From Chitinophaga pinensis (GTDB taxonomy: Bacteria; Bacteroidota; Bacteroidia; CAMBQF01), in assembly GCA_945869825.1 (NCBI GenBank), contig CAMBQF010000001.1, positions 18,372 through 82,371 on the forward strand: a stretch of 64,000 nucleotides of DNA, written 5' to 3'. The position numbers and the translations under genes were made by a program. Below are positions 2,037-61,893 of the stretch, one piece after another. Each line of letters begins with the position of its first letter. Position 1 is the stretch's first letter. Below the pieces are notes generated by a model that worked only from the letters and a program-made list of their open reading frames with translations, was not told the origin of the DNA and did no database searches.

Positions 2037-3356
2037 TTAGTGCTTACCGTTGCAATTGCTATGGTCGTGGTCTGGAGTAGCAACACCTTTAGGTGCTGTT
2101 TGGTTTATTAAAACCCTTTTGGTTACCTCGTTGCCACCAATATTTAATTTAATAAAGTATATACCATCGGCATTTCCTTCAAAATTAAGTGTAAGCTTGT
2201 TTTGCGATGTTATAACAGATGGCACGTTTACCAATTTGCCTTCGTTGGTATATACAGCATAGTTTACCCTGCTGTTTTTCTTATTTTCAAACCAAAGCGA
2301 AACTAAATCTGATGCAGGGTTAGGGTAAACTGAAACAGATAACTCGGCTGGCTTTTCTGCAACTGATGTAATTGTTTTTAGCCATGATTTACCGTCCAAA
2401 TCCCATGCGGTAACATCTTCAGGGTTAGTGCCTGTATCGTAAATAAGGTGGTGTAGTGCAGTAACGGCAATATCGGTTTGTACTGGTGTTTGGCGTAAAA
2501 TGGCAGTATCTACCGCTTCAACAAAGTAAGGAAAGCCTGTGTATTGGTAGCTGCCGGGGTCGGTACCGGTAATTGTTTGTTGTTGTATAGCATTACCACT
2601 GCCAATCCACCAAATATTGCGCTCAATATCAGTACCGCCACCATGGCCGGTGCCAATGCCACCGTGGTCTGTTGTTATAAGAATTATCCAATCTTCATTT
2701 GCGTAGTTTGGGCGTGCATACAAAGCATTTAAAACGGTTCCCAAATGTCCGTCTACCCCTTCAATAGCAGCCATGTAGCTTGGGTTAGATGGGTTAAATC
2801 CGCTGGCGTGGCCTGCTAAATCTACGGCATCAAAATAAACAAATAATGCATCAAGGTTTTCGTTTGCAAGAGCGGTAACGGCTGCTGCTGCTGTTGGGGT
2901 TCCAGCGCCATCAGGCACTTTAATTTTTTGATCCCAGCCATCATTACTTACCAGATCACTCATTGGGGCCCACTCTGTAACCTGCACGGCATATAGGCTA
3001 GGCTTTAGTTCTTTAGCCCGGGTAACAAAGTAAGGATATTGTGCATAATTGCTACCAGTGTAAGAGTTGCTGGTAACGCCATGTTTGTTTTCCCAAACAC
3101 CGCACATAATATCTGACCAAGATGGGCCAGATACAGTAATGCCACAATGCCAGGCATCAAAAGTATGAAGGCCATTGGCTAAAAGGCCATCAAGGTTAGG
3201 GGTGTTGGCTTGTTGTAAAGCATCAGAACGTGTACCGTCGATGCCAATAACCAATACTTTACGTGGCTGCGATGCAATTGCTGCAAACGAAACAACCAGT
3301 AAAAACGCTGAAAGAGAGAATTTGTATTTCATTTTAGATGTGTGTTTAAAAATCAA
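2037..3356 (-). CDS. alkaline phosphatase / nucleotide pyrophosphatase-phosphodiesterase family protein with C-terminal T9SS sorting domain
   Basis: Signal peptide; VLVIGIDGTRSDAL and ILITTDHGG motifs typical of AP superfamily; C-terminal ~80 aa Por_Secre_tail-like segment (VYPNPASDLVSL...GIYFIKL). Confidence 0.6.
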   Translation of the reverse strand: MIFKHTSKMKYKFSLSAFLLVVSFAAIASQPRKVLVIGIDGTRSDALQQANTPNLDGLLANGLHTFDAWHCGITVSGPSWSDIMCGVWENKHGVTSNSYTGSNYAQYPYFVTRAKELKPSLYAVQVTEWAPMSDLVSNDGWDQKIKVPDGAGTPTAAAAVTALANENLDALFVYFDAVDLAGHASGFNPSNPSYMAAIEGVDGHLGTVLNALYARPNYANEDWIILITTDHGGIGTGHGGGTDIERNIWWIGSGNAIQQQTITGTDPGSYQYTGFPYFVEAVDTAILRQTPVQTDIAVTALHHLIYDTGTNPEDVTAWDLDGKSWLKTITSVAEKPAELSVSVYPNPASDLVSLWFENKKNSRVNYAVYTNEGKLVNVPSVITSQNKLTLNFEGNADGIYFIKLNIGGNEVTKRVLINQTAPKGVATPDHDHSNCNGKH

Positions 3357-7561: not shown

Positions 7562-8701
7562 ATGGCCAAAAGGAAAAAAATTTTAGTTGCTCCGCTAAAT
7601 TGGGGGCTTGGGCATGCAACACGATGCATACCAATAATTAAAAAACTTAAAGAAAAAGGCTACGAGGTTATAGTAGCAGCATCAGACAGGCCATACCATT
7701 TATTAAAAAAAGAATTTCCGGAGCTTACCCATATTTATTTCCCAAATTATGAGATTGATTACCCTGAAAAAGGGAAAATGGGTTGGCACATGTTCAAAAT
7801 GGCACCAGAGGTATTCAGGCAAACGGGTAAAGAGCACCGAAAATTAAAAAAGATAATAGGGCGGTATAAAATAAAAGGGGTTATATCAGACAACCGCTTT
7901 GGCTTATCAAGCAAACAGGTGCCCTGCATATTTATATCGCACCAGTTGCAGTTAGAAATGCCTAAGGGCTGGGGTGTTTTTAAGCGTTTGGTAAACTGGA
8001 TTAACTTAAGTTACATGAAAAGGTTTGACGCTATCTGGATTCCTGATTTTGAAGGAGAACACAACCTTTCGGGCAGCCTGTCTCATTTTAAACACATACC
8101 CCAAAACACTACTTATTTAGGCTTGCTATCGCGGTTTTCTGAATTGAGTGGTAAGGAAGTAAAAGAAACAGGAAGTTACGACCTACTAATCAGCATATCG
8201 GGGCCAGAACCCCAGCGGACTATTTTGGAAAACAGGCTTACAGAACAAGCGTTGAAACTGCCCTATAAAACACTAATGGTTGTTGGTAAAACAGAGGATG
8301 GAAAAGACAGTGTTGATATAACCGATAAATTTAAAAAAGTAGCCCACCTAAATGCAGAGCGGATGTATAGTGCCATGAGGGATGCCAAATACATTATATG
8401 CCGGTCTGGCTATTCTACCGTAATGGATCTTGCGGCAATTGGCCAAAAGGCTGCTTTTATTCCTACGCCGGGGCAATCTGAACAAGAGTACCTTGCTGAA
8501 AAATATAAAAACGAGGGACTGGCTAATTTTATGGCCCAGGATGTTGTGAGTATAGAACAGCTTATTGCCGAATATGAAAATTATAAGGGTTTTGGCGGAT
8601 TTGATGCAGGGCCTGCTATATTAGATAATTGCCTTGACGTATTTTTGCAGAGGGTAGAAACACATACCCCAATTAAGTATAGCAAAAACAGCGGGTTGTA
8701 A
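7562..8701 (+). CDS. glycosyltransferase, GT1/GT28 (MGT/MurG-like) family
   Basis: N-terminal LVAPLNWGLGHATRCIP motif characteristic of GT-B UDP-glycosyltransferases; ~380 aa. Confidence 0.55.
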   Translation: MAKRKKILVAPLNWGLGHATRCIPIIKKLKEKGYEVIVAASDRPYHLLKKEFPELTHIYFPNYEIDYPEKGKMGWHMFKMAPEVFRQTGKEHRKLKKIIGRYKIKGVISDNRFGLSSKQVPCIFISHQLQLEMPKGWGVFKRLVNWINLSYMKRFDAIWIPDFEGEHNLSGSLSHFKHIPQNTTYLGLLSRFSELSGKEVKETGSYDLLISISGPEPQRTILENRLTEQALKLPYKTLMVVGKTEDGKDSVDITDKFKKVAHLNAERMYSAMRDAKYIICRSGYSTVMDLAAIGQKAAFIPTPGQSEQEYLAEKYKNEGLANFMAQDVVSIEQLIAEYENYKGFGGFDAGPAILDNCLDVFLQRVETHTPIKYSKNSGL

Positions 8702-9864: not shown

Positions 9865-11070
9865 TTACTCTACAATTACTTTGGTGCTGTAACTGCCCTC
9901 GCCTGCGCTTAGGTTTAGCAGGTACATACCGGGGGTTAAATGCGGAATGGTAAATGGCATGCTGCCTTTTGGCGATGCTGTTTTAGTATCGCTGGCTACC
10001 TCGCGGCCGGCAAGGTCGTACAGCTTAATGCTAATGGCTTTATTTGCCAGTGCTATTGCCGTAACCTGTATCATATTGCCACCGGCAGCAGGGTTTGGAG
10101 AGCAGCTCATATTTGCATCGGTTAGGGTTTCGCCAACGCTTTCAGGGGTTACAGTTGGGCTACCAATTTGGCCAATAATAAAGGCCCCCAGGTTTAATTG
10201 TGGTTGGGTATAAGAACGGCTTATTGTAAAAGGCTCGTTACCTGTAACGTTACCCAGGTTTTGTAAAAGATTCCAGCTACTATTAATATCGCTATAGTTA
10301 ACAATACCAGCAGAAGCCCCGGTAAAATTAGCCCGTTGGTGACTTTGGTTCCACTGCAGCGTAATGGCAGGAATGCTTCCACCATCAACATCTTCCTGAA
10401 TATCCCAGGTACGGTTTACAAGGTAATCATCTGCCAAAGGAGCGCCTGATAGTCCGTTTTGCAACACATTATTAAATACCTGTGCGCTAAAATTATCTTC
10501 TGTTCCGCTGTTTACAAGCCATGCGGGGTTATAGTTGCCTACAGAGTAACCAATAGGGAAGAAAGCGGTATCGCCTGTGCCAACGTTATTGTATTTAAGC
10601 AAGCCATTATCGCCACAAACTAAAAAACGGTTGTTGCTTGCGCCCAAAACAGCGTTATTAACCGTAGTCATAGTTAGGGTGTTAGGCCCTGATATAATAT
10701 GCCCGTTGATAAAATTAAGGCTGTTTACCCCGTTAACATCGCTCTGCAATTCAAGGCCCAGGGGATTATCCAGTTCAATGCTGCTTATTTCGCCCGTGCC
10801 GATAGTTAACATTTGTGGGTTATTGGTACCATTAAAACGGTATATGCCAGTACCTGTTTGGTTGCTGGCATCGGCAGCCTCAAAATTGCCTGCCACCTCT
10901 AGCGTGCCCTGGTTGTTTACATTGCCTGCGTTTAGGTTGTTAAAGTTTGATGTAAGGGAAATAGTGGCCCCTGCGGCAATATTTATTGTACCCCCATCGT
11001 TTATAAGGTTTTGCGCGTATGCTGAAAAGCCCAGGAAACAAAGGGCGGGTAGTATGTACAATTTTTTCAT
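9865..11070 (-). CDS. T9SS-secreted protein (hypothetical) with C-terminal sorting domain
   Basis: Likely start MKKLYILPALCFLGFSAYAQ (signal peptide); Gly/Asn-rich repetitive beta-rich body; C-terminal T9SS CTD-like segment (CSPNPAAG...KLYDLAGREV...GMYLLNL). Confidence 0.55.
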   Translation of the reverse strand: MKKLYILPALCFLGFSAYAQNLINDGGTINIAAGATISLTSNFNNLNAGNVNNQGTLEVAGNFEAADASNQTGTGIYRFNGTNNPQMLTIGTGEISSIELDNPLGLELQSDVNGVNSLNFINGHIISGPNTLTMTTVNNAVLGASNNRFLVCGDNGLLKYNNVGTGDTAFFPIGYSVGNYNPAWLVNSGTEDNFSAQVFNNVLQNGLSGAPLADDYLVNRTWDIQEDVDGGSIPAITLQWNQSHQRANFTGASAGIVNYSDINSSWNLLQNLGNVTGNEPFTISRSYTQPQLNLGAFIIGQIGSPTVTPESVGETLTDANMSCSPNPAAGGNMIQVTAIALANKAISIKLYDLAGREVASDTKTASPKGSMPFTIPHLTPGMYLLNLSAGEGSYSTKVIVE

Positions 11071-11146
11071 GGCTGTTATACTTTGGCAGTAAACCAAAGT
11101 TACAAAACAAACAGGCATAAAAACAGCCTCGGAACTAACTTTTCAA

Positions 11147-11776
11147 CTATAACCCTATTAAAAACCCAAAGCGGAATAATGGGTTGTTAAACGGGTAGCG
11201 GGGATCGTCGTTAAAATTCCATAATACCGAAAGGGTGGTAAACGCCCTGCGCCCTATGGCCTGCTGGTAGCCCAGGCCTGCAATGTAGCCCGGTACGTTT
11301 ACCCGTTTTTTAATTACACTGCTTGATGCAAAATCCTCCAAATTGAGCACCTCATACTCGCCATGCACAAAAAAGGCATCGCCATTAGAAAACACGTTGC
11401 GGGCAGGCAGCAGACGCACAAAAGCGCGGCCCCCGTAAGTATTAGTTTCAAAAATATAGCTTGATGCGCCATTACTAAGGCGTACCCTGTTGTAAAGGTA
11501 GGTAAAGCCAATACCGCCCATAAACACCTTGCCAACCTCGTAGCAAACCATTGGCGAAAGGTCTATAACCGTATAGGTGCCAAACTGAAGCCCCAAGCCG
11601 CCGCCAACGTAGGTATGGTCGAACCATTTAGGGCGTACAAACTTCTTTTTTTGCGGTTCTGCTTTGTTGGGCTTGGTAGTGCCCGTACTGTCGCTGTCAT
11701 CATATTTAGGCAATTGTGCCATAGCAGATGAGGCAAAAACCACAAGTATGATAAATGTCAATGTTTTTTTAAGCAT
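11147..11776 (-). CDS. hypothetical secreted/outer-membrane protein
   Basis: Signal peptide MLKKTLTFIILVVFASSAMAQ; beta-strand-like C-terminal half. Confidence 0.4.
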   Translation of the reverse strand: MLKKTLTFIILVVFASSAMAQLPKYDDSDSTGTTKPNKAEPQKKKFVRPKWFDHTYVGGGLGLQFGTYTVIDLSPMVCYEVGKVFMGGIGFTYLYNRVRLSNGASSYIFETNTYGGRAFVRLLPARNVFSNGDAFFVHGEYEVLNLEDFASSSVIKKRVNVPGYIAGLGYQQAIGRRAFTTLSVLWNFNDDPRYPFNNPLFRFGFLIGL

Positions 11777-11808
11777 GCAAAACTACTTTTGACAATGTTA
11801 CGCAAAAA

Positions 11809-13659
11809 TTGCACCAATTTGACAGAAAACCCGCTATGAATGCTATGTATAAGCCAAAATTTAATAAATTAGCACAAGAAAATGCCCGGGACCGTTTGAT
11901 GATTGAATACAATGAGGTGATTGATAAACTGCCTCCACATTTAAAGCAGTTTATTGTGGATCAGGATTATAGCCACTATACGCCAATTGACCAGGCGGTA
12001 TGGCGATATGTTATGCGCCAAAATTACTGCTACCTAAGCAAGGTTGCCCACGGCAGCTATGTAGAGGGCCTTCAAAAAACAGGTATTGGTATCGACCACA
12101 TCTCTCAAATGTATGGCATGAACCGCATTCTAAAAGAGATTGGTTGGGCGGCTGTTGCGGTTGACGGGTTTATTCCCCCATCGGCATTTATGGAATTTCA
12201 GGCGTATAAAATTTTGGTAATAGCGGCCGACATAAGGCAGCTGGAACATATACAATACACCCCGGCGCCTGATATTATTCACGAAGCAGCAGGCCATGCC
12301 CCCATTATTGCCGACCCTGAATATGCTGAGTACCTGCGCCTGTTTGGCGAGATTGGCAGCAAGGCATTTTCATCGGCCCAGGATTATGATTTGTACGAGG
12401 CAGTCAGGCATCTTTCTATTATAAAAGAATTCCCTAATGCTACAGCAGAAGAGATTGCTGAGGCTGAACAACGGTTGGAACAGGTATCGGCCAATATGGG
12501 CGAGCCCAGCGAAATGGCGCGTATACGCAACCTGCACTGGTGGACTGTTGAGTATGGTTTGATAGGCAAGCCCGAAGATTGTAAAATTTATGGTGCAGGC
12601 TTATTATCATCTATTGGCGAGAGTGTAAGCTGTATGCAACCCGATGTGAAGAAGATACCTTACACCATAGCAGCAGCAGATACCAGCTTTGATATTACCA
12701 AGCAACAACCCCAATTGTTTGTTACCCCATCGTTTAAACAACTGGTAGAGGTGCTGGAAGATTTTGCTGAAAGCCTTGCCCTGCGCCGTGGTGGTTTGTA
12801 TGGGCTGGAAGTGGCTATAAAATCGAAGAATGTAGGCACGGCAGTATATAGCTCGGGCTTGCAGGTGAGCGGGGTATTTGACGAAGCGATTACCGATAAA
12901 AACAACAACCTGATTTATATACATACCACAGGGCCTACATCATTAGCCTATAAAAATAAAGAGCTTGACGGGCATGGTAAAGTTTACCATGCAGAGGGTT
13001 TTGGGTCGCCGGTAGGAAAGCTAAAAGGCACCAACAAGCCTCTGGAACAACTTACCGAAGTAGAACTGGTGATGATGGGGATTGTAAACGGTTTGCCCTG
13101 CCACCTTGAGTTTGAAAGTGGTGTTGTAGTAGATGGTGTTTTGAGGGAAAAGGAGCAGGTATCGGGCGGAAAAAGCCTGATTTTTGTGTTTGATGATTGC
13201 ACCGTAACTTATGGCGACCGACTTTTGTACGACCCTGACTGGGGCACGTATGATATGGCTGTGGGCGAGAGTATAGTGTCTGTATTTAGTGGTGCTGCAG
13301 ATGTTGAGGCATACAAGCCTACATCGAGGGTGCCGCACGAGTTGACCAAGAAAATTGTATACACCCCTGAACAATTGCGCTTGCAAAAATTATATGGCCA
13401 AGTGCGGGAGATACGCGATACCAAAGGCGACTACAACGCATTGCCAGGAGTATTCAGCATATTAAAAACTGATTTTACCAATGACTGGCTGCTGTGTGTA
13501 GAGTTGTATGAGATATTGAAGGACAGCAACCTATACCCCAACCAAACAGCAGAAATAAAGGCTTATTTAGAGGAGATGAAAACCCGTAAGCCAGAATATA
13601 AAAAGCTTATTGAAGACGGTATACGTCTTACTGATGAGCTTGAACTTACCCACTCGTAA
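11809..13659 (+). CDS. biopterin-dependent aromatic amino acid hydroxylase family protein (phenylalanine-4-monooxygenase-like) with ~270-aa C-terminal extension
   Basis: YTPAPDIIHEAAGHAPIIADPEYAEY and YGAGLLSSIGE match the iron-binding motifs of PAH/TH/TPH catalytic domains (PEPDxxHELLGHVPLL...FGAGLLSS); total 616 aa is about twice a bacterial PhhA. Confidence 0.6.
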   Translation: MHQFDRKPAMNAMYKPKFNKLAQENARDRLMIEYNEVIDKLPPHLKQFIVDQDYSHYTPIDQAVWRYVMRQNYCYLSKVAHGSYVEGLQKTGIGIDHISQMYGMNRILKEIGWAAVAVDGFIPPSAFMEFQAYKILVIAADIRQLEHIQYTPAPDIIHEAAGHAPIIADPEYAEYLRLFGEIGSKAFSSAQDYDLYEAVRHLSIIKEFPNATAEEIAEAEQRLEQVSANMGEPSEMARIRNLHWWTVEYGLIGKPEDCKIYGAGLLSSIGESVSCMQPDVKKIPYTIAAADTSFDITKQQPQLFVTPSFKQLVEVLEDFAESLALRRGGLYGLEVAIKSKNVGTAVYSSGLQVSGVFDEAITDKNNNLIYIHTTGPTSLAYKNKELDGHGKVYHAEGFGSPVGKLKGTNKPLEQLTEVELVMMGIVNGLPCHLEFESGVVVDGVLREKEQVSGGKSLIFVFDDCTVTYGDRLLYDPDWGTYDMAVGESIVSVFSGAADVEAYKPTSRVPHELTKKIVYTPEQLRLQKLYGQVREIRDTKGDYNALPGVFSILKTDFTNDWLLCVELYEILKDSNLYPNQTAEIKAYLEEMKTRKPEYKKLIEDGIRLTDELELTHS

Positions 13660-14339
13660 TGAATATTTTGATAACCGGCGCAGGCCGCGGTATTGGTTTA
13701 GCATGTGTAAAGCAACTGGCTGCCAATGCCAACTATAATGTTGTTGCCGTTTCGCGGAATATAGGTGCTATTGAGGGGCTGGCGTTGCCTAATGTACATG
13801 CTATAGCTGCTGATATTACCCATGCGGAAAACGTAGACGCGCTGGTAAACACCATAACCAACCGTTACGGCAAAATTGATGTGTTGGTAAACAACGCGGG
13901 TCTGCTGGTAAACAGGCCGTTTACTGATTTTACTAATGATGATGCCCGACGCATTTTCGAGGTTAATTTTTTTGCGCCTGCCCGCTTAGTGCAAGTGCTT
14001 ACGCCCCACATAAACCGTGGCGGGCATATAGTAAACATAGGCAGTATGGGTGGCTACCAGGGTAGCCAAAAGTTTGCAGGGCTGGCCTACTACAGCGCAT
14101 CGAAGGCGGCGCTGGCGGTGCTTACTGAATGCTTAGCCGAGGAGCTAAAAGATGCTGGCATACGCATAAATTGCCTGGCGCTGGGCAGCGTGCAAACAGA
14201 GATGTTGCAAGAGGCTTTTCCGGGTTACCAATCGCCGACGGGGGTGGAAGAGATGGCCCACTTTATTACCGACTTTGCCCTGCATAGTGGAAAGCTGTTT
14301 AATGGCAAGGTTTTGCCGGTGAGTGTGACTACTCCGTAG
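13659..14339 (+). CDS. SDR-family short-chain dehydrogenase/reductase (possible pteridine/dihydropteridine reductase)
   Basis: TGAGRGIG Rossmann motif, YxxxK (YYSASK) catalytic motif; start overlaps stop of hydroxylase gene (TAATG), indicating translational coupling. Confidence 0.75.
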   Translation: MNILITGAGRGIGLACVKQLAANANYNVVAVSRNIGAIEGLALPNVHAIAADITHAENVDALVNTITNRYGKIDVLVNNAGLLVNRPFTDFTNDDARRIFEVNFFAPARLVQVLTPHINRGGHIVNIGSMGGYQGSQKFAGLAYYSASKAALAVLTECLAEELKDAGIRINCLALGSVQTEMLQEAFPGYQSPTGVEEMAHFITDFALHSGKLFNGKVLPVSVTTP

Positions 14340-14456: not shown

Positions 14457-15098
14457 CTATTTCTTATCAGTTTCGGCCTGCTCCTTTTTCAACTTATCAA
14501 TATCGTTGATAAGGGTGGCTATTTCGGTATCTGATGTACCATCGTAATACCCTCGGATGTGGTGGAATTTATCTACCAAAACAAACATTTGGGTATGGAT
14601 AAAATCGTCTTCAATTTTCTGGGTAATGGTGGTATCGGTGCTAAGTAAATAGCTTTCGCGGGCCATATCGTATAAGGCACGTTTATCGCCGGTTAAAAAG
14701 TACCATTGTGTGTTATCGGCATTGTGGCGTTTGGCATACTCCATTAACGCAGGTACTGAGTCTTCCTCAGGCTTAACGGTATGCGACAGGATTTTAAAGC
14801 CTTTATCCCCTTTTATTTTATCTGATACCTTCATCATGTTTTTATTCATAATAGGGCATATAGACTTGCAGGTGGTAAAGAAATATTCAACCACATAGTT
14901 GGTACCCTCTACGCTTTTATCGGTAATGGTATCGCCCAGCTGGTTAACAAACTTAAATGGCTTTACCGAGTGGAATAAGGTATCGCCACGGGTGGTTAAT
15001 TCTTTATCGCCATAAATAGGCAAATAACGTACTTCCTTTTTGTTGGGGGTGCAGGCTGCAAATAATACCACAACAAAAGCAAAAAATAATACTCTCAT
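14457..15098 (-). CDS. SCO1/SenC family copper chaperone
   Basis: Lipoprotein signal, thioredoxin-like CxxxC (CKSICP) and downstream His typical of SCO family. Confidence 0.7.
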   Translation of the reverse strand: MRVLFFAFVVVLFAACTPNKKEVRYLPIYGDKELTTRGDTLFHSVKPFKFVNQLGDTITDKSVEGTNYVVEYFFTTCKSICPIMNKNMMKVSDKIKGDKGFKILSHTVKPEEDSVPALMEYAKRHNADNTQWYFLTGDKRALYDMARESYLLSTDTTITQKIEDDFIHTQMFVLVDKFHHIRGYYDGTSDTEIATLINDIDKLKKEQAETDKK

Positions 15099-15100
15099 TA

Positions 15101-15397
15101 TTACTTAATAAAATCAGTTGGTTTTTTTACAAACTCTTCTTTACAGCCGGTGCCGCAAAAACCATATAGTTTGCCTTTGTAGCTTGCTGTATCTGCAACG
15201 CCTGATGTTATATCCATTTCGCAAACAGGGTCAATTTTAGAGGCTAGTAAAGCCATATCAACAGCCAGTTTACCATCTTCTTTAGGCATAGGTGGTTTTT
15301 GCCCTTCAATTTTTTGGTTTTCGCCTGCTTTAGGCTCTGTTTTTTGGCCGCAGCTTACTATGATAAAACAGGCGGCTATAAATGCTAATGCTTTCAT
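15101..15397 (-). CDS. YHS-domain (TRASH) metal-binding lipoprotein
   Basis: Lipoprotein signal (VSCGQ); C-terminal YGFCGTGCKEEF YHS-domain motif; 3-nt gap to SCO1 gene. Confidence 0.6.
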   Translation of the reverse strand: MKALAFIAACFIIVSCGQKTEPKAGENQKIEGQKPPMPKEDGKLAVDMALLASKIDPVCEMDITSGVADTASYKGKLYGFCGTGCKEEFVKKPTDFIK

Positions 15398-15530
15398 GAA
15401 AAATAATTATGGTGCAAAGGTACTCTATAACTCTATAGCTATCAAAAAAAACAGGTAGCCTCTACATTCAATTTTTTCACTTTTTAGTTTTTCACTTTTA
15501 GTTTTCGCATACCTTTGCGTCAACTTTAAT

Positions 15531-15610
15531 ACAGGGGTGTCCGCCGTTTGGCGAACTGAGAGAGTCCCTTTGAACCTGATCAGGTTAGTACCTGCGATAG
15601 GGAGTATTAG
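15531..15610 (+). promoter_or_regulatory. TPP (thiamine pyrophosphate) riboswitch, THI element
   Basis: ACAGGGGTGTCC...CTGAGAGAGTCCCTTTGAACCTGATCAGGTTAGTACCTGCGATAGGGAG matches THI-box consensus (GGGGUGC...CUGAGA...ACCUGAUCUGGAUAAUGCCAGCGUAGGGA); lies directly 5' of TonB-dependent receptor gene. Confidence 0.85.
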
Positions 15611-15696
15611 GAAGCGCTTACGCACATTCTGTGCGTGTAGTCCTTAGTCCGTATACTACGGATATTCCTGTATTAAGGCAACAAATACAGGCTATC

Positions 15697-17877
15697 ATGA
15701 AAAATCAATTCAAAATTCAGAATGCAAAATGCATAATTGTGCTTGCAATGGCTATTTCAAACTTTGCTATTGCGCAAACGCCGATGAGTAAAACAATCAG
15801 CGACTCGGTAATAGTAGCGGCTACGCGTACCGATGGTAAACAGGGTGTGGCCTATACCCAGGTGAGTAAAGAGGATTTGAAGAAGCAAAACCTTGGGCAG
15901 GATATTCCGGTATTGCTAAACCTAACCCCATCGGTGGTGGTAAGCTCTGATGCAGGTAATGGCGTTGGCTACACAGGCATACGCATACGCGGCAGCGATG
16001 CTACCCGTATAAATGTTACCGTAAATGGTATACCTATGAACGATGCCGAAAGCCATGGTTTGTTTTGGGTTAACATGCCCGATCTTGCATCATCAGTAAA
16101 CTCTATACAAATACAACGCGGGGCGGGCACCTCTACCAATGGGGCGGGGGCTTTTGGTGCCAGTATAAACATACAAAGCAATGTGCTGAATGCAGAACCG
16201 TATGCAGAGGTTAACTCATCGGCCGGGTCGTTCAACACGTTTAAAAATACGGTAATGGTGGGCTCGGGACTTGTTGGTGGCAAATTTACTTTTGATGCAA
16301 GGCTTTCTAAAATAACATCAGACGGGTTTGTAGACCGTGCCGCATCAGACTTAAAATCATTCTTTGTATCAGGAGGATATTATGGCACAAAGACGATTAT
16401 AAGGGCTAATGTGTTTTCGGGCAAAGAACGTACGTACCAGTCGTGGTATGGCATACCCGAAGCGGCGTTGGATACCAACCGCACCTACAACTACTACACC
16501 TATGCCAACCAAACCGATAACTACCAGCAAGACCATTACCAGCTTATTGGCTCGCACAGTATGAACAACAACTGGAACCTCAACCTGGCGCTGCACTATA
16601 CCCGGGGCAAAGGCTATTATGAAGAGTACAGAGGGCAGGATGATTTTGCCAACTACGGCTTGCCCAATTTTCAACTTTCGCAAGATACCATTCCGCCTAT
16701 AACTGTAAGCACAACAGACCTTGTGCGCCAACGCTGGTTAGATAACCATTTTTACGGGCTTACCTACTCTGTAAACTACAAAAGCTACAACCGCTTAAGC
16801 TTTATTTTAGGCGGGGGAGCAAACCAATACCGTGGAGCCCATTATGGCAATATTATCTGGATGCAATATGCCGGCAGCATTCCTAAAGATTACCGTTATT
16901 ATGATAACGATGCAGTTAAAACTGACATTAATGTATATGGCAAAGCCAACTACCATTTTGGCGCGGGCATTAATGCTTTTATCGATTTACAATACCGCCA
17001 CGTAGGCTACTCATTTTTAGGGTTTGATAATAACCTGCAAAATGTGCAGCAAGATGTAAACCTTAACTTTTTTAATCCTAAGGCAGGCATTAACGTGGAG
17101 CTGCCAAGCGATCAGCAGTTATACCTATCAGCAAGCGTAGCGCACCGCGAACCCACGCGCGATGATTTTACCCAAAGCACACCTGCCAGCAGGCCTAAGG
17201 CAGAGCGGATGATAGATACCGAACTGGGTTATAAAAAGCATTGGAAAAACACTATGGTTGGAGCAAACGGTTATTTTATGTATTACCAAAACCAGCTGGT
17301 ATTAACAGGGAGAATTAATGATGTTGGCGCATATATACGCAGCAACATAGACCAAAGCTACCGCGCTGGTATAGAGCTGGAGGGAGCTGTAAACATTGGC
17401 AAAAAAGTGAAGCTTGCAGGTAACTTTACCTTTAGTCAGAACAAGGTGATAGACTTTGCCGAATATATTGACGATTACGACAATGGTGGGCAGGTGGTTA
17501 ACCGTTACAAAAGTACCGATATATCATTCTCGCCAAACATGGTGGGGGCGGCAACCCTTAGCTACGAGCCTGTAAAAAAGCTTGTATTTAGTTTGATTAA
17601 TAAATATGTTAGTCGCCAATACCTTGATAATACGAGCAACAAGGCACGGTCATTAAACCCTTATACCACGCAAGACTTACGCATAAATTACAACTTTAGC
17701 GCAGGTTCAGCAAAAGACATTTCGCTAATATTATCAGTAAACAACCTGCTGAATGCTAAATATGAGCCTAATGGCTATACGTTTAGCTATATATATGGAG
17801 GGCAACAAACCACAGAAAACTACTACTACCCGCAAGCGGGCATAAACGTAATGGGTGGCATAGGCGTAAGGTTTTAG
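15697..17877 (+). CDS. TonB-dependent outer-membrane receptor (riboswitch-controlled; probable thiamine/precursor uptake)
   Basis: Preferred start MKNQFKIQNAKCIIVLAMAISNFAIAQ (signal peptide); plug-like N-terminal region, beta-barrel, C-terminal GIGVRF. Confidence 0.8.
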   Translation: MKNQFKIQNAKCIIVLAMAISNFAIAQTPMSKTISDSVIVAATRTDGKQGVAYTQVSKEDLKKQNLGQDIPVLLNLTPSVVVSSDAGNGVGYTGIRIRGSDATRINVTVNGIPMNDAESHGLFWVNMPDLASSVNSIQIQRGAGTSTNGAGAFGASINIQSNVLNAEPYAEVNSSAGSFNTFKNTVMVGSGLVGGKFTFDARLSKITSDGFVDRAASDLKSFFVSGGYYGTKTIIRANVFSGKERTYQSWYGIPEAALDTNRTYNYYTYANQTDNYQQDHYQLIGSHSMNNNWNLNLALHYTRGKGYYEEYRGQDDFANYGLPNFQLSQDTIPPITVSTTDLVRQRWLDNHFYGLTYSVNYKSYNRLSFILGGGANQYRGAHYGNIIWMQYAGSIPKDYRYYDNDAVKTDINVYGKANYHFGAGINAFIDLQYRHVGYSFLGFDNNLQNVQQDVNLNFFNPKAGINVELPSDQQLYLSASVAHREPTRDDFTQSTPASRPKAERMIDTELGYKKHWKNTMVGANGYFMYYQNQLVLTGRINDVGAYIRSNIDQSYRAGIELEGAVNIGKKVKLAGNFTFSQNKVIDFAEYIDDYDNGGQVVNRYKSTDISFSPNMVGAATLSYEPVKKLVFSLINKYVSRQYLDNTSNKARSLNPYTTQDLRINYNFSAGSAKDISLILSVNNLLNAKYEPNGYTFSYIYGGQQTTENYYYPQAGINVMGGIGVRF

Positions 17878-18042
17878 GGACCTTACCCCTTTTAAGTAAG
17901 GTGGGGGAGGAGTTGGTTATGCGCATATTGTCTTGGCAAAAACTTTGTTTATATTGCCACAGCATTAACTAATACCTATGGAGATACACCGTTTTTTGTA
18001 TAAAAGCGACAAAGCAACCACCTAAATGTTATAGCTTACATA

Positions 18043-18471
18043 TTGGTGTTTATAGCCTTTGTGGCGGGTGTTGAGAGTATACTAACATCAATCATACTGT
18101 TGTTTGCCGCGGCGGTACTGTTTTTATTTCAACGGGGTATAGAGCTTGATTTACGCGATGGAACCTATCGTTTTATTATGGCAGTAGGACCTGTGCGCAT
18201 TGGTAGTTGGGGTAAACTACCTGCGCTAAAATCAATATCGGTATTTAGCACCAATAAAGTCTCTACACTTACCAGCAGGGCTAATAATGAATCGGAATTT
18301 AAAAACAGGGTAATACAGGTAAACCTGATAACAGAGCGCAACCAAAAGATAAAAATACTGGAGGTGGAAAGCAAAGAGCCCGCTTTTTTGCTGGCTAAAG
18401 CTGTTGCTCGCAAGTTGGATGTAAATGTATGGGACGCAACAGAACGCGAAGGCAACTGGGTAGAATTATAA
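18043..18471 (+). CDS. hypothetical membrane protein
   Basis: ORF only; N-terminal TM helix. Confidence 0.3.
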   Translation: MVFIAFVAGVESILTSIILLFAAAVLFLFQRGIELDLRDGTYRFIMAVGPVRIGSWGKLPALKSISVFSTNKVSTLTSRANNESEFKNRVIQVNLITERNQKIKILEVESKEPAFLLAKAVARKLDVNVWDATEREGNWVEL

Positions 18472-18573
18472 GTTTAGAGCGGGACATGTAAAAATATCCT
18501 GTAAAAAGTAACCTAAGTGCTGTTTTTGCGGCTGCAAGGTGCGTATATTTGTATATATAGTAAATAGATAAAC

Positions 18574-18963
18574 ATGAAGCACATAATATTTTCGTTGCTG
18601 GTAATAGCGGCGGTAGCCCTGGGTGGATGCAGGTATGACAAAGCGGATGAACTATACGTGGCCACGCCATGCGACACTTCGGTTTCAATCACATTTTCAG
18701 CATATGTTACGGGTGTTGTAAACGATAATTGCATTAGTTGCCATAGCAACGCCAATAATGTGAGCCTTGGCGGCAGCATAAACCTTGAAGGTTATGATAA
18801 CCTGATAAACTACGTTAATGACGGCCCTGACGGCGGTAGCTTTATGGGTGCCATTACCCACAACCCTAACTACCTTGCTATGCCCCAAAACGAAGCCAAG
18901 TTGGATGACTGTACCATTTTAAAATTGCAGAAGTGGGTTAACAACGGCGCACAGAACAACTAA
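18574..18963 (+). CDS. small lipoprotein with single CXXCH heme-binding motif (putative c-type cytochrome-like)
   Basis: Lipoprotein signal LGGC; NDNCISCHSN motif. Confidence 0.4.
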   Translation: MKHIIFSLLVIAAVALGGCRYDKADELYVATPCDTSVSITFSAYVTGVVNDNCISCHSNANNVSLGGSINLEGYDNLINYVNDGPDGGSFMGAITHNPNYLAMPQNEAKLDDCTILKLQKWVNNGAQNN

Positions 18964-18967
18964 AACG

Positions 18968-19900
18968 ATGAAGAAGATTTTACTATCAATATTTACCGGC
19001 ATTGCCAGTGTTGCTATAGCCCAACCGCCTGCCGACACAACGAATAAAGCTGTTGATTTTGACTCGTTGTTAAACATGGTTGAAGATAGCCAGCCAAAGG
19101 AAAAGCCATTGGTAACAGCTACGTTCAAATCGTCAAGAATAATAAACGGACACTCTGTTGAGTTGGCAAAACCAAAGCATTTAGAGTTCCGTCTATCTCA
19201 CCGTTTTAGCAGCGTGCGCGATGGGCTGGATGGTTTTTTTGGCCTTGATAATGCCAGCACCCGTATAGCCTTGGAATATGGCATAAACGACTTTATGATG
19301 GTTGGCCTGGGTCGTAGTGGTGCCTATAGCAAATCTGTAGATGCATTTTACAAAGCCAAGGTGTTGCGCCAACGCGAAGGCGGTATGCCTATAACGCTTA
19401 CCTTGTTTGGATCGGCGGTGATAAGTACCATAAAAAATAATATCCCTGACTACCGTTTCGACTCGAGGCTAACCTATACCGTACAGGCTATAATTGCATC
19501 AAAAATAAGCGAGAAGCTATCGTTGCAACTATCGCCAACCCTGGTACACCGCAACCTGGTACCCACGGCAGTTTACCCTAACGATTTGATTGCTATTGGT
19601 GTTGGGGGCCGCTTAAAACTATCGCGCAGAATATCATTAAATGCTGAGTACTTTTACCGTGTATTATCATCAGACTACCGCAAGGTAGACCCATACCATA
19701 ACGCACTTGCTATAGGGTTTGATTTTGATACCGGCGGCCATATTTTCTCGCTGCACTTTACCAACTCGCGTCCGCAGATAGAGCCCGGCTTTATTGGCGA
19801 AACCAGCTACAACTGGCTTAAGGGCGACTTTAGCTTTGGCTTTAACATTACCCGCCAGTTTTATTTGGGTAAAAAGAGCAAAGCGCCGCAAGGCTGGTAG
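18968..19900 (+). CDS. outer-membrane beta-barrel protein (hypothetical), co-oriented 5 nt downstream of heme-motif lipoprotein
   Basis: Signal peptide MKKILLSIFTGIASVAIAQ; beta-strand periodicity. Confidence 0.45.
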   Translation: MKKILLSIFTGIASVAIAQPPADTTNKAVDFDSLLNMVEDSQPKEKPLVTATFKSSRIINGHSVELAKPKHLEFRLSHRFSSVRDGLDGFFGLDNASTRIALEYGINDFMMVGLGRSGAYSKSVDAFYKAKVLRQREGGMPITLTLFGSAVISTIKNNIPDYRFDSRLTYTVQAIIASKISEKLSLQLSPTLVHRNLVPTAVYPNDLIAIGVGGRLKLSRRISLNAEYFYRVLSSDYRKVDPYHNALAIGFDFDTGGHIFSLHFTNSRPQIEPGFIGETSYNWLKGDFSFGFNITRQFYLGKKSKAPQGW

Positions 19901-30788: not shown

Positions 30789-31508
30789 ATGGAACATTTA
30801 AAAATTGCAAGCGATAACTATGTCGCATTTACGTTCTTTATCGGAACAATGGCTATGATGGCAGCCTCAGTATTCTTCTTTTTTGAGTTAAACAACACTT
30901 CTCAAAAGTGGCGAACATCGGTGTTGGTATCAGGCCTTATTACATTTATTGCAGCGGTGCATTACTATTACATGAGGGGCTATAACTTGGAAACAGGCGA
31001 GTCTCCTACATTTTTCCGCTATGTTGACTGGATTTTAACTGTTCCGTTAATGTGTGTAGAGTTTTATTTAATTACCAAAAAGGCAGGTGCTAAAATTCAG
31101 TTGCTTTGGAAATTAATATTTGCCTCGTTAGTGATGCTGGTGACAGGTTACTTTGGAGAAACTATTGACAGAGGCAATAGTGTACTTTGGGGTGTAATTT
31201 CTGGTGCTGCTTATTTTTACATTGCTTACCTGATATGGTTTGGTGAAGTTGCCAAATTGGCTCAAACTGCAGGAACACAGGTAGCTAAAGCTACACGCAT
31301 ACTTGCGTGGTTTGTACTAGTTGGCTGGGCAATTTATCCTTTAGGTTATATTTTAGGAACTCCAGGTGGCTTGTTTGGTATGCAATTAGTTAGCGACCCT
31401 GCAGCTGCATCTCATGCAATGGATATTGTATATAACATTGCCGACGCTATCAATAAAATTGGTTTTGGACTGGTAATTTATGCCTTGAGCAGAAGCTCTG
31501 AAGATTAA
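30789..31508 (+). CDS. microbial (type I) rhodopsin, proteorhodopsin/xanthorhodopsin-like proton pump (DTE motif)
   Basis: 7TM; helix C RYVDWILTVPLMCVE (Asp-Thr...Glu at BR85/89/96 equivalents); helix G retinal Lys in DAINKIGFGL. Confidence 0.85.
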   Translation: MEHLKIASDNYVAFTFFIGTMAMMAASVFFFFELNNTSQKWRTSVLVSGLITFIAAVHYYYMRGYNLETGESPTFFRYVDWILTVPLMCVEFYLITKKAGAKIQLLWKLIFASLVMLVTGYFGETIDRGNSVLWGVISGAAYFYIAYLIWFGEVAKLAQTAGTQVAKATRILAWFVLVGWAIYPLGYILGTPGGLFGMQLVSDPAAASHAMDIVYNIADAINKIGFGLVIYALSRSSED

Positions 31509-31592
31509 TATTACTAAGAACAAGAAAAAAACGGGGTGGTATATTTAATAATATGTCACCCTTTTTTATTGCTTTAACCTAAAAGGCATTCC

Positions 31593-33602
31593 ATGAAAAT
31601 ATCAGCAAAAAATCCAGCCTTGCCATTTGATTTTATTTTTATAGGATTAGGTGCTGCAAATTGCTTGTTGCTTTTAAGGCTGCATGATAATGGCTTGCTT
31701 ACAGGTAAAACCATTGCTATTGTTGAACCGGATAGTAAATCAGCTAATGATAGGACTTTTTGTTTTTGGGCTACAGAAGATGATGTAACAAACTTACATG
31801 TAAAACCTTTGGTTAGCAACAGTTGGGACTTTGTAGAAATTGGTGGTATTGCCAAGCAACAAATTAATCCACTGCGCTATTTTCATGTAAAAGGTATCGA
31901 TATTTATAACCAAACAAAAAGTATTCTTAGTGTTAATAATGTTACATTTTTTAACACTCTTTTTAAAGAAAACCCGGAAGTAAAATCAACGTATTATGAA
32001 GTTAGACTGGCTAACGAAACACTTTATGGTTATAAAGTATTTGATAGTCGCCCGCCAATTTTTTTGCCCCCGAAAAAAAACCAAAGCCATTTATACCAAT
32101 CTTTTTATGGCTTAAAAATAAAACTCGCTACAAAAACATTTGATACTTCAGTAATGGTAATGATGGATTTTAACGTCCCTCAAAACAATTTCACACAGTT
32201 TGTTTATGTGTTGCCTTTTTCTGAAGATACGGCATTAATAGAGTTAACACGCTTTGGTACTGAAAAATTGACACAACAGGAAGCTACGCCAATTCTTAAT
32301 GAATACATAGATAGACTGGGAGTTTCTTTTGATATTTTAGAGGAAGAAAGAGGGGTAATACCTATGTCATCATCCGCTTTAAAAAGTGAAGATTTTGGCA
32401 CAAATTGGATAAACATGGGGGCTAGGGCAAATATGATTAAATGCTCTACAGGATATGCTTTTCATGCAATGGCAGAAGATGCCATAACGCAAATGGAAGC
32501 CATTAAAAATAATGTGTTTCCAAAAAGAAAAATGAAAGGGCAAAGGTTTGCTTTTTACGACCGGTTGCTATTAAAAATATTAGATGAAAGTCCTGAGTAC
32601 GGCAAAGTAATTTTTGAAACACTATTTAAAAAAGTACCTATTGTAAAAGTGTTACGTTTTTTAGGAGAGAAAACAAGCCTATCAGAAGAAATTATAATTT
32701 TTTCAAAATTGCCCAAGCGTATATTTATTACAAGCGCTGCAAAAGATATTTTGCAACAGTTTTATACTTTACCTGTGTTAGCGTTGCCTTTTCTGTTCAC
32801 TATTATTACCCTCTTTCTAACGCTTGTCAATCTTCAATATATTTCTTGGGGCATTTTAGGCTTGGGGTTTTTATCGGTTGGCCTGTCTCATGGCGCATTA
32901 GACCACCTAACAGCAAAACCAATCATCAATAAAAAACAACTACTAGGTTTTATTATACGGTATTTGTTTAAGGCCATTGTTTTAGGCCTGGTTTGGTTAT
33001 TTTACCCTGACTTGGCGCTACTTCTATTTATAGCTTACTCTGCCTGGCATTTTGGCCAAGCCGATTTTAAAGAATGGCAATTAAAACAAGGGTGGCAATC
33101 TTTATGCTGGGGCACTATTGCTTTAATGATTATTTTATTCTCTCATTTTGAAGAATTAAATTTAATTCTTTTACAAATACCCAATTTAGAATTTGTAAAC
33201 ACGTTAAAGAATCTTTCTGATAATATAATATGGGCTTTGAATATCCTTTTTATTGTAGGAGGAATTTTATTAGCTGTAATAAATAAATCAAAGCACATAC
33301 TTTTTACTTTAACATATTTATTGCTCTGTAGTATGTTGCCTTTACTTCTTTCATTTGGTATCTATTTTGTTGGCCAACACAGTTTACATGGTTGGCGTCA
33401 TCTTTCTTTAGGTTTGAATGAATCTTCATCACGATTATGGCTAAAGTCTCTCCCTTTTAGTATTGGGGGCGCATTGGTTATTTTATATTTTTTGCTTCTC
33501 TCAAGCTCAAATTATGTAGGTATTTTTTTTATCATTTTATCTTGTTTAAGCATACCCCATGTCTTTAGTATGCATCATTTTTATTCTAAGTTAAAACTAT
33601 AA
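31593..33602 (+). CDS. fusion protein: lycopene beta-cyclase (CrtY-type, FAD) N-terminal domain + Brp/Blh beta-carotene 15,15'-dioxygenase C-terminal membrane domain
   Basis: N-term FIGLGAANCLLLLRL dinucleotide fold and ~380 aa CrtY-like region; C-term polytopic region with Blh His motifs (GLSHGALDHL, WHFGQADF, GQHSLHGWRH, LSIPHVFSMHH). Confidence 0.7.
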   Translation: MKISAKNPALPFDFIFIGLGAANCLLLLRLHDNGLLTGKTIAIVEPDSKSANDRTFCFWATEDDVTNLHVKPLVSNSWDFVEIGGIAKQQINPLRYFHVKGIDIYNQTKSILSVNNVTFFNTLFKENPEVKSTYYEVRLANETLYGYKVFDSRPPIFLPPKKNQSHLYQSFYGLKIKLATKTFDTSVMVMMDFNVPQNNFTQFVYVLPFSEDTALIELTRFGTEKLTQQEATPILNEYIDRLGVSFDILEEERGVIPMSSSALKSEDFGTNWINMGARANMIKCSTGYAFHAMAEDAITQMEAIKNNVFPKRKMKGQRFAFYDRLLLKILDESPEYGKVIFETLFKKVPIVKVLRFLGEKTSLSEEIIIFSKLPKRIFITSAAKDILQQFYTLPVLALPFLFTIITLFLTLVNLQYISWGILGLGFLSVGLSHGALDHLTAKPIINKKQLLGFIIRYLFKAIVLGLVWLFYPDLALLLFIAYSAWHFGQADFKEWQLKQGWQSLCWGTIALMIILFSHFEELNLILLQIPNLEFVNTLKNLSDNIIWALNILFIVGGILLAVINKSKHILFTLTYLLLCSMLPLLLSFGIYFVGQHSLHGWRHLSLGLNESSSRLWLKSLPFSIGGALVILYFLLLSSSNYVGIFFIILSCLSIPHVFSMHHFYSKLKL

Positions 33603-58095: not shown

Positions 58096-58173
58096 TAAAA
58101 GCAAAAGTATGAAAAATCAGGGAATAGGGCACAGGGGTTAGGGTGTAGTAAATTAGTAAGGCTAAATAAATAC

Positions 58174-60577: not shown

Positions 60578-60608
60578 TACCTCGCGTAGCGAGGGGAGGG
60601 ATTTTTTT
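60578..60608. terminator. hairpin (CCTCGC-GTA-GCGAGG) + T7; terminator-like on plus strand, immediately after kynU stop on minus strand
   Basis: perfect 6-bp stem with flanking second hairpin CTCCCTTTTAAAGGGAG; T-run on plus strand only. Confidence 0.35.
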
Positions 60609-61893
60609 AAATTACCTCAGAAACGATTTTGGCGAAACGGTAACAATCGCTAAACGAGTTGTACAATGGTACCGGCGCTATGCGGATAACGTTGGGGTTG
60701 CGCCAGTCGGCTATAACACCGTTTGCGGTTAGGGCATCAAACACCTCGCGCCCTTTGTCATTAAATAGCAACGACAGCTGGCAGCCACGCTCCGCAGGGT
60801 TGCTTGGGGTGATGATTTCAAACGCATTAGTAGCGTTTACCTGTTGTAAACAGAACTCCAAATAGGCGGTAAGCTGCTTGCTTTTGGCAGTTAGTGCATC
60901 CATGCCCGCCTCGGCAAATAGTGCTACAGATGCCCTGTGCGCTGCCATAGACAAGATAGGGGCGTTGCTTAGCTGCCAGCCTTCGGCGCTTTCTATCGGG
61001 TTAAAACCCGGCTCCATTTTAAAGCGGTTTTCTTTGTTATGGCCCCACCAACCGGCCATACGCGGCAGGTTAGATTTGTGGTGTTTTTCGTGTACAAAAG
61101 CTCCCGCCACACTGCCCGGCCCCGAGTTTAAGTACTTATAGCTGCACCAGCAGGCAAAGTCTACATTCCAGTTGTGGAGTTCTAAGGCTACGTTGCCGGC
61201 GGCATGTGCCAAATCGAAACCACAGAAAGCACCGGTTTTGTGGGTAGCTTCGGTAATGGTTTTCATATCGTACAATTGCCCATTGTAGTAGTTTACCCCG
61301 CCAATAATAACCACTGCCAACTCATTTGCGTGTTGGTTTATTGTGTCTATTATTTGTTGGGTAGCGGTATAGTAACCATCAGAATAATCAATCTCTATAA
61401 CCGCTTCTTTAGGGTCGAAACCATGCAACCGCGCTTGCGATTCAAAGGCATAACTATCACTAGGGAAAGGTTTTTTCTCGCAGATGATTTTGTAGCGGTC
61501 TTTAGTAGGGCGGTAAAAGCTGGTTAGCAGCAGGTGCAGGTTTACGGTAAGCTGGTTCATTACCACCACCTCGCTTGGCAAGGCACCCACAATGGCGCTT
61601 ACATCGGTAGCAAAGCGTTCGTGGTAGGGCATCCAGTTGCCGCTGGTAATGGTGGTGCCGTTGGCCAGGGTTTTCTCCCGGTTGGTAAAATGGCCTTCTA
61701 CTCCCAGCTCGGCCCAAACATCCAGTTCGGCCTGTATATACTCCCCTAAATTTTTAGGTTGAAGGCCTAACGAGTTGCCGCATAAATACACTGCCGGTTG
61801 CCCGTTGTGTTTAGGTAGTAAAAACTTATCGCGGAAGCTTTTTAGCTTATCGTTAGTGTCTTGTTGTTGGGCAAATTGCTCTGTAAACTCCAT
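60607..61893 (-). CDS. kynU: kynureninase
   Basis: 428 aa with kynureninase-like N-terminus and PLP-dependent aminotransferase class V region. Confidence 0.8.
   Translation of the reverse strand: MEFTEQFAQQQDTNDKLKSFRDKFLLPKHNGQPAVYLCGNSLGLQPKNLGEYIQAELDVWAELGVEGHFTNREKTLANGTTITSGNWMPYHERFATDVSAIVGALPSEVVVMNQLTVNLHLLLTSFYRPTKDRYKIICEKKPFPSDSYAFESQARLHGFDPKEAVIEIDYSDGYYTATQQIIDTINQHANELAVVIIGGVNYYNGQLYDMKTITEATHKTGAFCGFDLAHAAGNVALELHNWNVDFACWCSYKYLNSGPGSVAGAFVHEKHHKSNLPRMAGWWGHNKENRFKMEPGFNPIESAEGWQLSNAPILSMAAHRASVALFAEAGMDALTAKSKQLTAYLEFCLQQVNATNAFEIITPSNPAERGCQLSLLFNDKGREVFDALTANGVIADWRNPNVIRIAPVPLYNSFSDCYRFAKIVSEVI

Follow-up and report, generated by a model that had tools for sequence, protein, structure and literature searches.

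A long-form aromatic amino acid hydroxylase gene overlapping an SDR gene in a Chitinophaga pinensis contig

The stretch of DNA considered here, referred to as the window, comprises 64,000 nucleotides of Chitinophaga pinensis (GenBank assembly GCA_945869825.1, contig CAMBQF010000001.1, positions 18,372 to 82,371, forward strand). The element in question is a pair of genes on its plus strand, namely an aromatic amino acid hydroxylase and, overlapping its stop codon, a short-chain dehydrogenase/reductase (SDR). A preliminary description of this DNA had presented the pair as a hydroxylase with a large unexplained C-terminal extension, followed by an SDR that might recycle its pterin cofactor. The hydroxylase is a further member of a curated and structurally solved family, and so of an already known kind. 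Taken as a whole, the locus very probably holds an ordinary long-form hydroxylase that forms an operon with an SDR, an arrangement that is restricted to certain lineages and does not constitute a family-wide functional unit. The features of the pair are given below with window positions and residue numbers.

11836..13659, plus strand: long-form aromatic amino acid hydroxylase gene, 607 aa (NF010657, PDB 7VGM, public protein P0001)
11923..12780, plus strand: Biopterin_H catalytic core, residues ~30-315 (PF00351, 2.7e-29)
12280-12282, 12295-12297 and 12550-12552, plus strand: iron ligands H149, H154 and E239, respectively (family alignment)
12370..12519, plus strand: insertion of ~50 residues in the core, residues ~179-228 (split alignments against short-form bacterial phenylalanine hydroxylases)
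12781..13320, plus strand: beta-rich half of the C-terminal module, residues 316-495 (AlphaFold2 with alignment, conservation)
13366..13653, plus strand: five-helix bundle, residues 511-606 (AlphaFold2 with alignment)
13657..13661, plus strand: TAATG junction, hydroxylase stop over SDR start (direct reading of the sequence)
13659..14339, plus strand: classical SDR, 226 aa, probably of NADPH type (PF00106, motifs, PDB relatives)

The open frame of the hydroxylase spans 11809..13659 (plus strand) and opens with TTG, from which it would be read as 616 aa. However, the ATG at 11836, giving 607 aa, is likely to be the start, because near-identical public proteins at 99% and 90% identity measure 607 (P0001) and 621 aa, respectively. 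This frame, with both motifs that were quoted for it in the preliminary description, is present in the translation. The TAATG overlap reported there is likewise read in the sequence, the hydroxylase stop TAA (13657-13659) and the SDR start ATG (13659-13661) having one base in common.

The hydroxylase and its C-terminal module

The assignment of the gene product to the biopterin-dependent hydroxylases is upheld by the Pfam family PF00351, the sole Pfam match of the protein, which scores 102.7 bits against a cut-off of 22.7 in the N-terminal part. The 2-His-1-carboxylate iron site is intact, with H149 and H154 in the motif HEAAGH and E239 in WWTVEYG, and these ligands and the motifs around them are invariant in all 88 aligned family members. 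From these catalytic residues, pterin- and iron-dependent hydroxylation is predicted; the protein would be a mono-oxygenase that depends on Fe(II) and tetrahydropterin, with phenylalanine as the most likely substrate and tyrosine as its product. When aligned with the phenylalanine hydroxylase (PAH) of Chromobacterium violaceum, the core breaks in two, at query residues 37-178 and 229-311, and the Pfam and TIGR01267 matches also fall in two stretches. The intervening insertion of about 50 residues is predicted to be helical, a second family-specific feature beside the C-terminal module.

The extension is the standard C-terminal half of a curated long-form family and is not unusual, because thousands of homologues of the same length share the architecture. 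Against the NCBIfam equivalog NF010657 (PRK14056, "aromatic amino acid hydroxylase"), the protein scores 809.1 bits, above the cut-off of 346, and profile positions 5-576 of 580 correspond to its residues 30-601. In the PDB, chain A of 7VGM (592 aa), labelled in Foldseek as "Phenylalanine hydroxylase from Bacillus cereus ATCC 14579" and released in 2022, aligns with residues 31-598 at an E value of 7.5e-157, and the C-terminal module is homologous to that of this solved member. At least 8000 database proteins match the hydroxylase, and in the best 120 of these matches every protein measures 573-621 aa with a query coverage of at least 93%. By comparison, the scores against the short-form equivalogs TIGR01267 and NF008877 stay below their cut-offs (155.8 against 264.75 and 176.3 against 247 bits, respectively). 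The extension described as large and unexplained is thus the common condition of the family. That no motif could be recognised in it holds for Pfam, where residues 316-607 scanned alone gave nothing even at E<=10, but not for NF010657 and 7VGM, both of which span it.

Relatives of the hydroxylase are encoded at no fewer than 586 genome loci, mostly of Flavobacteriaceae and also of Bacteroidales, Balneolaceae and others. Using the C-terminal fragment alone as query, 869 representatives of clusters at 50% identity were retrieved, 581 of them at E<=1e-10, and among the matches listed, the aligned region falls at about residues 290-600 in all proteins of about 545 aa or more. Discrete classes of short proteins, of about 290, 330 and 375 aa, among these representatives raised the idea of a stand-alone C-terminal module, which was rejected, the short proteins being truncated gene calls. 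Each class opens at a methionine that is conserved within the full-length protein (in TMAFRxGG, CMQPxVKKIPY, and SEMA or MNWW). In the cluster records, the short proteins stand as singletons, on contigs that measure 1-5.4 kb and mostly less than 2.3 kb, and several are named phenylalanine-4-hydroxylase. Two short proteins cluster together with full-length proteins of 581-608 aa, and one of these two is half of a split gene. This gene, on a 4815-bp contig of a Bdellovibrionales metagenome-assembled genome, is divided at the domain boundary into 298 and 303 aa (P0314 and P0392; MCB0361484.1, MCB0361485.1). An intact relative of 608 aa lies in the same cluster, and the split is probably a frameshift or an assembly error. 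The long-form family therewith reaches Bdellovibrionota.

The fold of the module was predicted with AlphaFold2 for residues 316-607 only, using an alignment of 30 sequences; a full-length run from the single sequence, with a predicted local distance difference test (pLDDT) of 37.6, was set aside. For the region that had been singled out in the preliminary description (residues ~340-616 of the longer reading), the model gives a confident two-part fold (pLDDT 90.5), in which a beta-rich module is followed by a five-helix bundle. Its only strong structural relative is 7VGM. Beyond it, the beta module shows just weak matches to Sm/LSm-like barrel folds, and the remaining matches are generic helical repeats. 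The beta module has 41 of its 180 positions conserved at 95% or more, the motifs GFGSPxG and WGxYDMAxG among them, and the five-helix bundle is less conserved.

In a benchmark paper that uses 7VGM, a hydrogen-bond network was described that links R32 and D62 to R494, E530 and E533 (10.1101/2022.11.21.517405). These residues map exactly onto R57, D87, R524, E556 and E559 of the hydroxylase, which are conserved in 86, 66 (as D, E or N), 86, 88 and 88 of the 88 sequences, respectively. Because the network residues map and are conserved, the module appears to be docked on the catalytic domain rather than to hang from it as a loose appendage; a conserved salt-bridge network would hold both the beta-rich module and the five-helix bundle in place. 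The module thus looks like an integral element of the enzyme, structural or regulatory in nature, rather than a recent addition. What gives the module its interest is that some 290 residues are conserved in hundreds of sequence clusters and apparently tightly docked, with no published function found for them: literature searches on 7VGM and on the biochemistry of long-form PAHs returned benchmark uses of the structure only, and no paper on the role of the module.

A regulatory role can be worded more specifically, as an allosteric sensor that would bind the substrate amino acid or another metabolite and thereby gate the active site, a functional analogue of the N-terminal ACT domain in animal PAH and compatible with the reading of the protein as an ordinary long-form hydroxylase. 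The strong conservation of the beta module, whose glycine-rich GFGSPxG and WGxYDMAxG are of the kind seen in binding sites, would suit such a function, as would a rigid tether to the N-terminal segment of the catalytic domain and the fact that the module was never found apart from that domain. Yet the fold is not that of ACT, the matches outside the family being those weak Sm-like barrels and generic helical repeats, the literature searches gave no ligand or kinetic data, and the conservation could equally reflect folding or oligomerisation. An allosteric sensor is consequently possible, if somewhat on the doubtful side.

The SDR and its pairing with the hydroxylase

The second gene of the pair encodes a classical SDR, matching PF00106 with 163.6 bits (4.9e-48). 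Its translation contains TGAGRGIG (T6-G13) as the TGxxxGxG motif, NNAG (N78-G81) and the catalytic residues N103, S129, Y145 and K149, the last two spaced as Tyr-x3-Lys. Among SDRs, use of NADPH goes with basic residues at the glycine motif and following the second strand, and such residues, in TGAGRGIG and VSRN, suggest that this enzyme uses NADPH too. It belongs to a Bacteroidota family of about 225-235 aa, with 7320 matches at E<=1e-20, whose members are named "SDR family oxidoreductase" or similar.

By sequence, the protein does not appear to belong to any known pterin-reductase family and groups with generic ketoreductases. Its best PDB relatives are the generic SDRs 3M1A, FabG and 17beta-HSD14 (73-107 bits), whereas human dihydropteridine reductase (QDPR) reaches 25.0 bits at 21% identity and human sepiapterin reductase (SPR) 41.6 bits over 161 residues. 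The sequences of both human queries were verified, that of QDPR against 1HDR. QDPR is not among the top 60 PDB matches. Pterin-reductase models are not among the 25 best of 234 NCBIfam matches, each listed match being below its own cut-off; neither the FolM nor the PTR1 model is among these 25.

Whether hydroxylase and SDR are conserved as a pair was surveyed from both sides. In 80 genome loci of the hydroxylase, an SDR was sought within 6 kb, and its orthologue lies immediately downstream in four (L001, L002, L003 and L012). Additional look-ups outside this set found the SDR adjoining the hydroxylase in L081, L084, L093 and L094, and a close relative (L082/L083) with the hydroxylase but no adjoining SDR. 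From the other side, 69 informative metagenome loci at 46-68% SDR identity had the hydroxylase upstream in five (L098, L129, L142, L153 and L166), and six further SDR homologues looked at singly were all unlinked to it. The pair is therefore a minority state. Where the pair does exist, the junction tends to be tight. In five of six loci examined the genes overlap or are 3-6 nt apart: the TAATG-type overlap of the window is shared by L002 and L084, a gap of 3-6 nt separates the genes in L001, L003 and L081, and L012 has about 50 nt. The genes also overlap in L129, L142 and L166.

The neighbours of the two genes elsewhere tell little of a common pathway. In the other 76 hydroxylase loci, a lipoprotein, two uncharacterised genes, alanyl-tRNA synthetase, urocanase and a rhodanese-like open reading frame (ORF) recur; a search for conserved functional neighbours across the 80 loci found only such housekeeping or uncharacterised genes, none pterin-related. 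The rhodanese-like ORF, of about 102 aa, is present in 18 of the 80 loci (L069 at 7912-8220 and 17 other Flavobacteriaceae), on the same strand as the hydroxylase, which it follows at a median distance of 37 bp, its name resting on a CRSGxR motif seen by eye. The usual neighbours of the SDR are a SprT-like gene, mannose-1-phosphate guanylyltransferase, pyruvate dehydrogenase subunits, acyl-CoA dehydrogenase and a SnoaL-like gene. In L091 (4563-5684), L096 (3570-4681) and L097 (3558-4669), an SDR of the same family overlaps the stop of a SnoaL-like gene of 143-145 aa, downstream of ribonucleotide reductase genes, which makes the SnoaL-like gene a second recurrent and tightly coupled partner of this SDR family.

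Two further features lie upstream of the pair:

11147..11776, minus strand: 209-aa signal-peptide protein, divergent neighbour, with homologues upstream of the SDR elsewhere
11784..11791, plus strand: TACTTTTG, candidate promoter element that fits the Bacteroidota -7 consensus TAnnTTTG, 45 nt ahead of the hydroxylase ATG

Because the hydroxylase and the SDR are flanked by this divergent gene on the upstream side and by a convergent SCO1 gene on the downstream side, the unit is bicistronic at most, and the hydroxylase would be co-transcribed with a classical, probably NADPH-using SDR of a large Bacteroidota family. TACTTTTG is a weak promoter candidate, the consensus occurring in the window at chance level (79 found against 87 expected). 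Scans for sigma-70 promoters and terminators also gave counts at chance, and the sigma-70 scan does not cover Bacteroidota promoters.

Pfam assigns no family to the 209-aa protein itself. At least 15 loci without a hydroxylase have a homologue of it (26-32% identity, E 1e-12 to 1e-21) upstream of the SDR and in divergent orientation. Homologues were also found in L001 and in L012, where the trio of the window recurs, and L081, L093 and L094 have a comparably sized gene at the corresponding position. Across Bacteroidota, no other divergent neighbour accompanies this SDR family as consistently, whether or not the hydroxylase lies between the two. The conserved backbone is the 209-aa gene plus the SDR, with the hydroxylase between them in some lineages only, because the hydroxylase-free loci keep the divergent pair and L012 keeps the trio. 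The usual partner of the SDR family would accordingly be the divergent gene.

As for the history of the pair, the clade at 70% identity or more is syntenic (type IX secretion system (T9SS) protein, ~208-aa gene, hydroxylase, SDR, SCO1, YHS). In neighbour-joining trees, both without support values, the hydroxylase-linked SDRs do not form a clade, and the linked hydroxylases are spread over several branches that diverge early in the Bacteroidota radiation. These trees fit an old pairing with repeated loss and a repeated juxtaposition equally well.

Some observations weigh against a merely lineage-bound operon around an ordinary enzyme. The tight junction recurs where the flanks differ, in Acidiluteibacter, L003, L012 and the marine contigs L129, L142 and L166, a recurrence that exceeds simple inherited synteny and hints at selection for co-expression. 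Besides, the literature searches brought up biochemistry for none of the long-form enzymes, and both the substrate and the role of the module are inferred by us. A functional link between the two proteins may exist, because the tight pairing recurs in several lineages with different flanking genes; the SDR as functional partner is at the same time rarely adjacent and generic in sequence, so that this part of the preliminary description stands as to the junction and not as to the rest.

The most elaborate form of such a link is that the SDR is a dedicated pterin reductase, serving either the recycling of quinonoid dihydropterin or an SPR-like cofactor synthesis, in a self-contained unit that would stand in for QDPR or FolM in Bacteroidota as a non-orthologous replacement. 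In favour of it one can cite the overlapping or closely spaced genes at the window and the loci listed above, the persistence of the pairing with other flanks, and the predicted use of NADPH, as in pterin reductases, with QDPR and SPR being SDR-fold enzymes themselves. Further, the window offers no other pterin gene to serve the hydroxylase: for pterin-4a-carbinolamine dehydratase there is no motif and no tblastn match better than E 3.6, PF01329 is absent among the scanned window ORFs (nearly all ORFs of at least 150 aa), and no pterin-synthesis, QDPR or homogentisate-pathway genes were found in it. On the other hand, the scores to QDPR and SPR lie below those to generic ketoreductases, none of the pterin-reductase models is among the 25 best NCBIfam matches, 76 of 80 hydroxylase loci have no SDR within 6 kb and 64 of 69 SDR loci no hydroxylase, the usual SDR neighbours (SprT-like, pyruvate dehydrogenase, guanylyltransferase, SnoaL) belong elsewhere, and the linked SDRs form no clade. 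The pterin-recycling unit proposed in the preliminary description thus finds no support in homology or in general co-conservation, and we regard it as unlikely. A bolder version, that the whole family of ~225-235-aa SDRs is the missing dihydropterin reductase of Bacteroidota and serves the long-form hydroxylase wherever both occur, is if anything harder to believe; were it true, the operons in the clade of the window, in Acidiluteibacter and in several marine lineages would be surviving traces of that partnership. For pterin recycling in hydroxylase-bearing Bacteroidota, a recurrent minority operon with a small NADPH-type SDR is in any case one candidate.

Human PAH has a tryptophan at W326, a position that is Trp in PAH and tyrosine hydroxylase and Phe in tryptophan hydroxylase. 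W235 in HWWTVEYG, which we take to be the same position from an alignment of the motif by eye, is Trp as well. That the hydroxylase acts on tryptophan, tyrosine or a non-protein aromatic compound, with the SDR processing the product in a small pathway, would agree with the non-committal NCBI family name, with the scores under cut-off for the phenylalanine-specific TIGR01267 and NF008877 and with the tight coupling of the genes, but is very improbable given W235, the name of phenylalanine hydroxylase chosen by the depositors of 7VGM and the mostly housekeeping neighbours of the family, which outline no pathway.

Other genes of the window

Kynureninase, which the preliminary description had brought into connection with aromatic amino acid catabolism, is indeed encoded in the window (60607..61893, minus strand, PF22580 KYNU_C), but some 46 kb separate it from the pair, and it is carried on the other strand among unrelated housekeeping genes, too distant to bear on the hydroxylase. 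Adjoining the pair, a copper-related cluster at 14457-19900 comprises SCO1/SenC (minus), a YHS-domain protein (minus), a TonB-dependent receptor (plus), a small cytochrome-c-like ORF and DUF5777 (plus). SCO1 and YHS also follow the SDR in L093 and L094. DUF5777, together with an ORF of ~123 aa, lies close to the hydroxylase in L082/L083 and, in L089/L090, close to an SDR that is not linked to a hydroxylase.

At 30789-33602 (plus strand), a microbial rhodopsin (PF01036, 2.8e-42) is followed by a 669-aa ORF that fuses a lycopene cyclase (PF05834) to the beta-carotene 15,15'-dioxygenase Blh (PF15461) in one protein, the retinal-making partner of the rhodopsin. A three-domain protein of the GH3 family, best known from the plant auxin and jasmonate amido synthetases, is encoded at 38576-40087 (minus strand; PF03321, PF23571, PF23572). 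An LpxC-FabZ fusion (55636-57045, minus strand) flanked by LpxA and LpxD (54851-55636 and 57052-58104) forms a lipid A gene cluster, and T9SS-sorted proteins are encoded at 2037-3356 and 9865-11118, in keeping with an origin from Bacteroidota.

Comparison with known systems

The nearest solved enzyme, the PAH of Bacillus cereus ATCC 14579 (7VGM), is of the same long form with 592 aa and comes from Bacillota, whereas the hydroxylase described here is from a Sphingobacteriales-like member of Bacteroidota and overlaps the start of an SDR gene, an arrangement of translational coupling. Short-form PAH/PhhA enzymes, as those of Chromobacterium violaceum (1LTU), Colwellia (2V27) and Legionella (4BPT), share the Biopterin_H fold and the 2-His-1-Glu site (E 1e-24 to 1e-31), but measure about 270-300 aa and have neither the C-terminal module of ~290 aa nor the ~50-aa insertion of the long form. 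The classic phhA-phhB-phhC operon includes a carbinolamine dehydratase (PMC1173090), and an adjacent gene of this type was not found at the present locus.

The animal phenylalanine, tyrosine and tryptophan hydroxylases have the catalytic core and the iron ligands in common with this protein. At the N-terminus they possess a regulatory ACT domain and at the C-terminus a short helix for tetramerisation (PMC9048412; PMC1173090), in place of which the hydroxylase described here carries its unrelated C-terminal module. In turn, QDPR (1HDR) and SPR (1Z6Z/6USN) share with the SDR the Rossmann SDR fold, the Tyr-x3-Lys pair and a similar small size; by sequence the SDR is neither of them, standing nearer to FabG-like, 17beta-HSD14-like and "putative dehydrogenase" SDRs.

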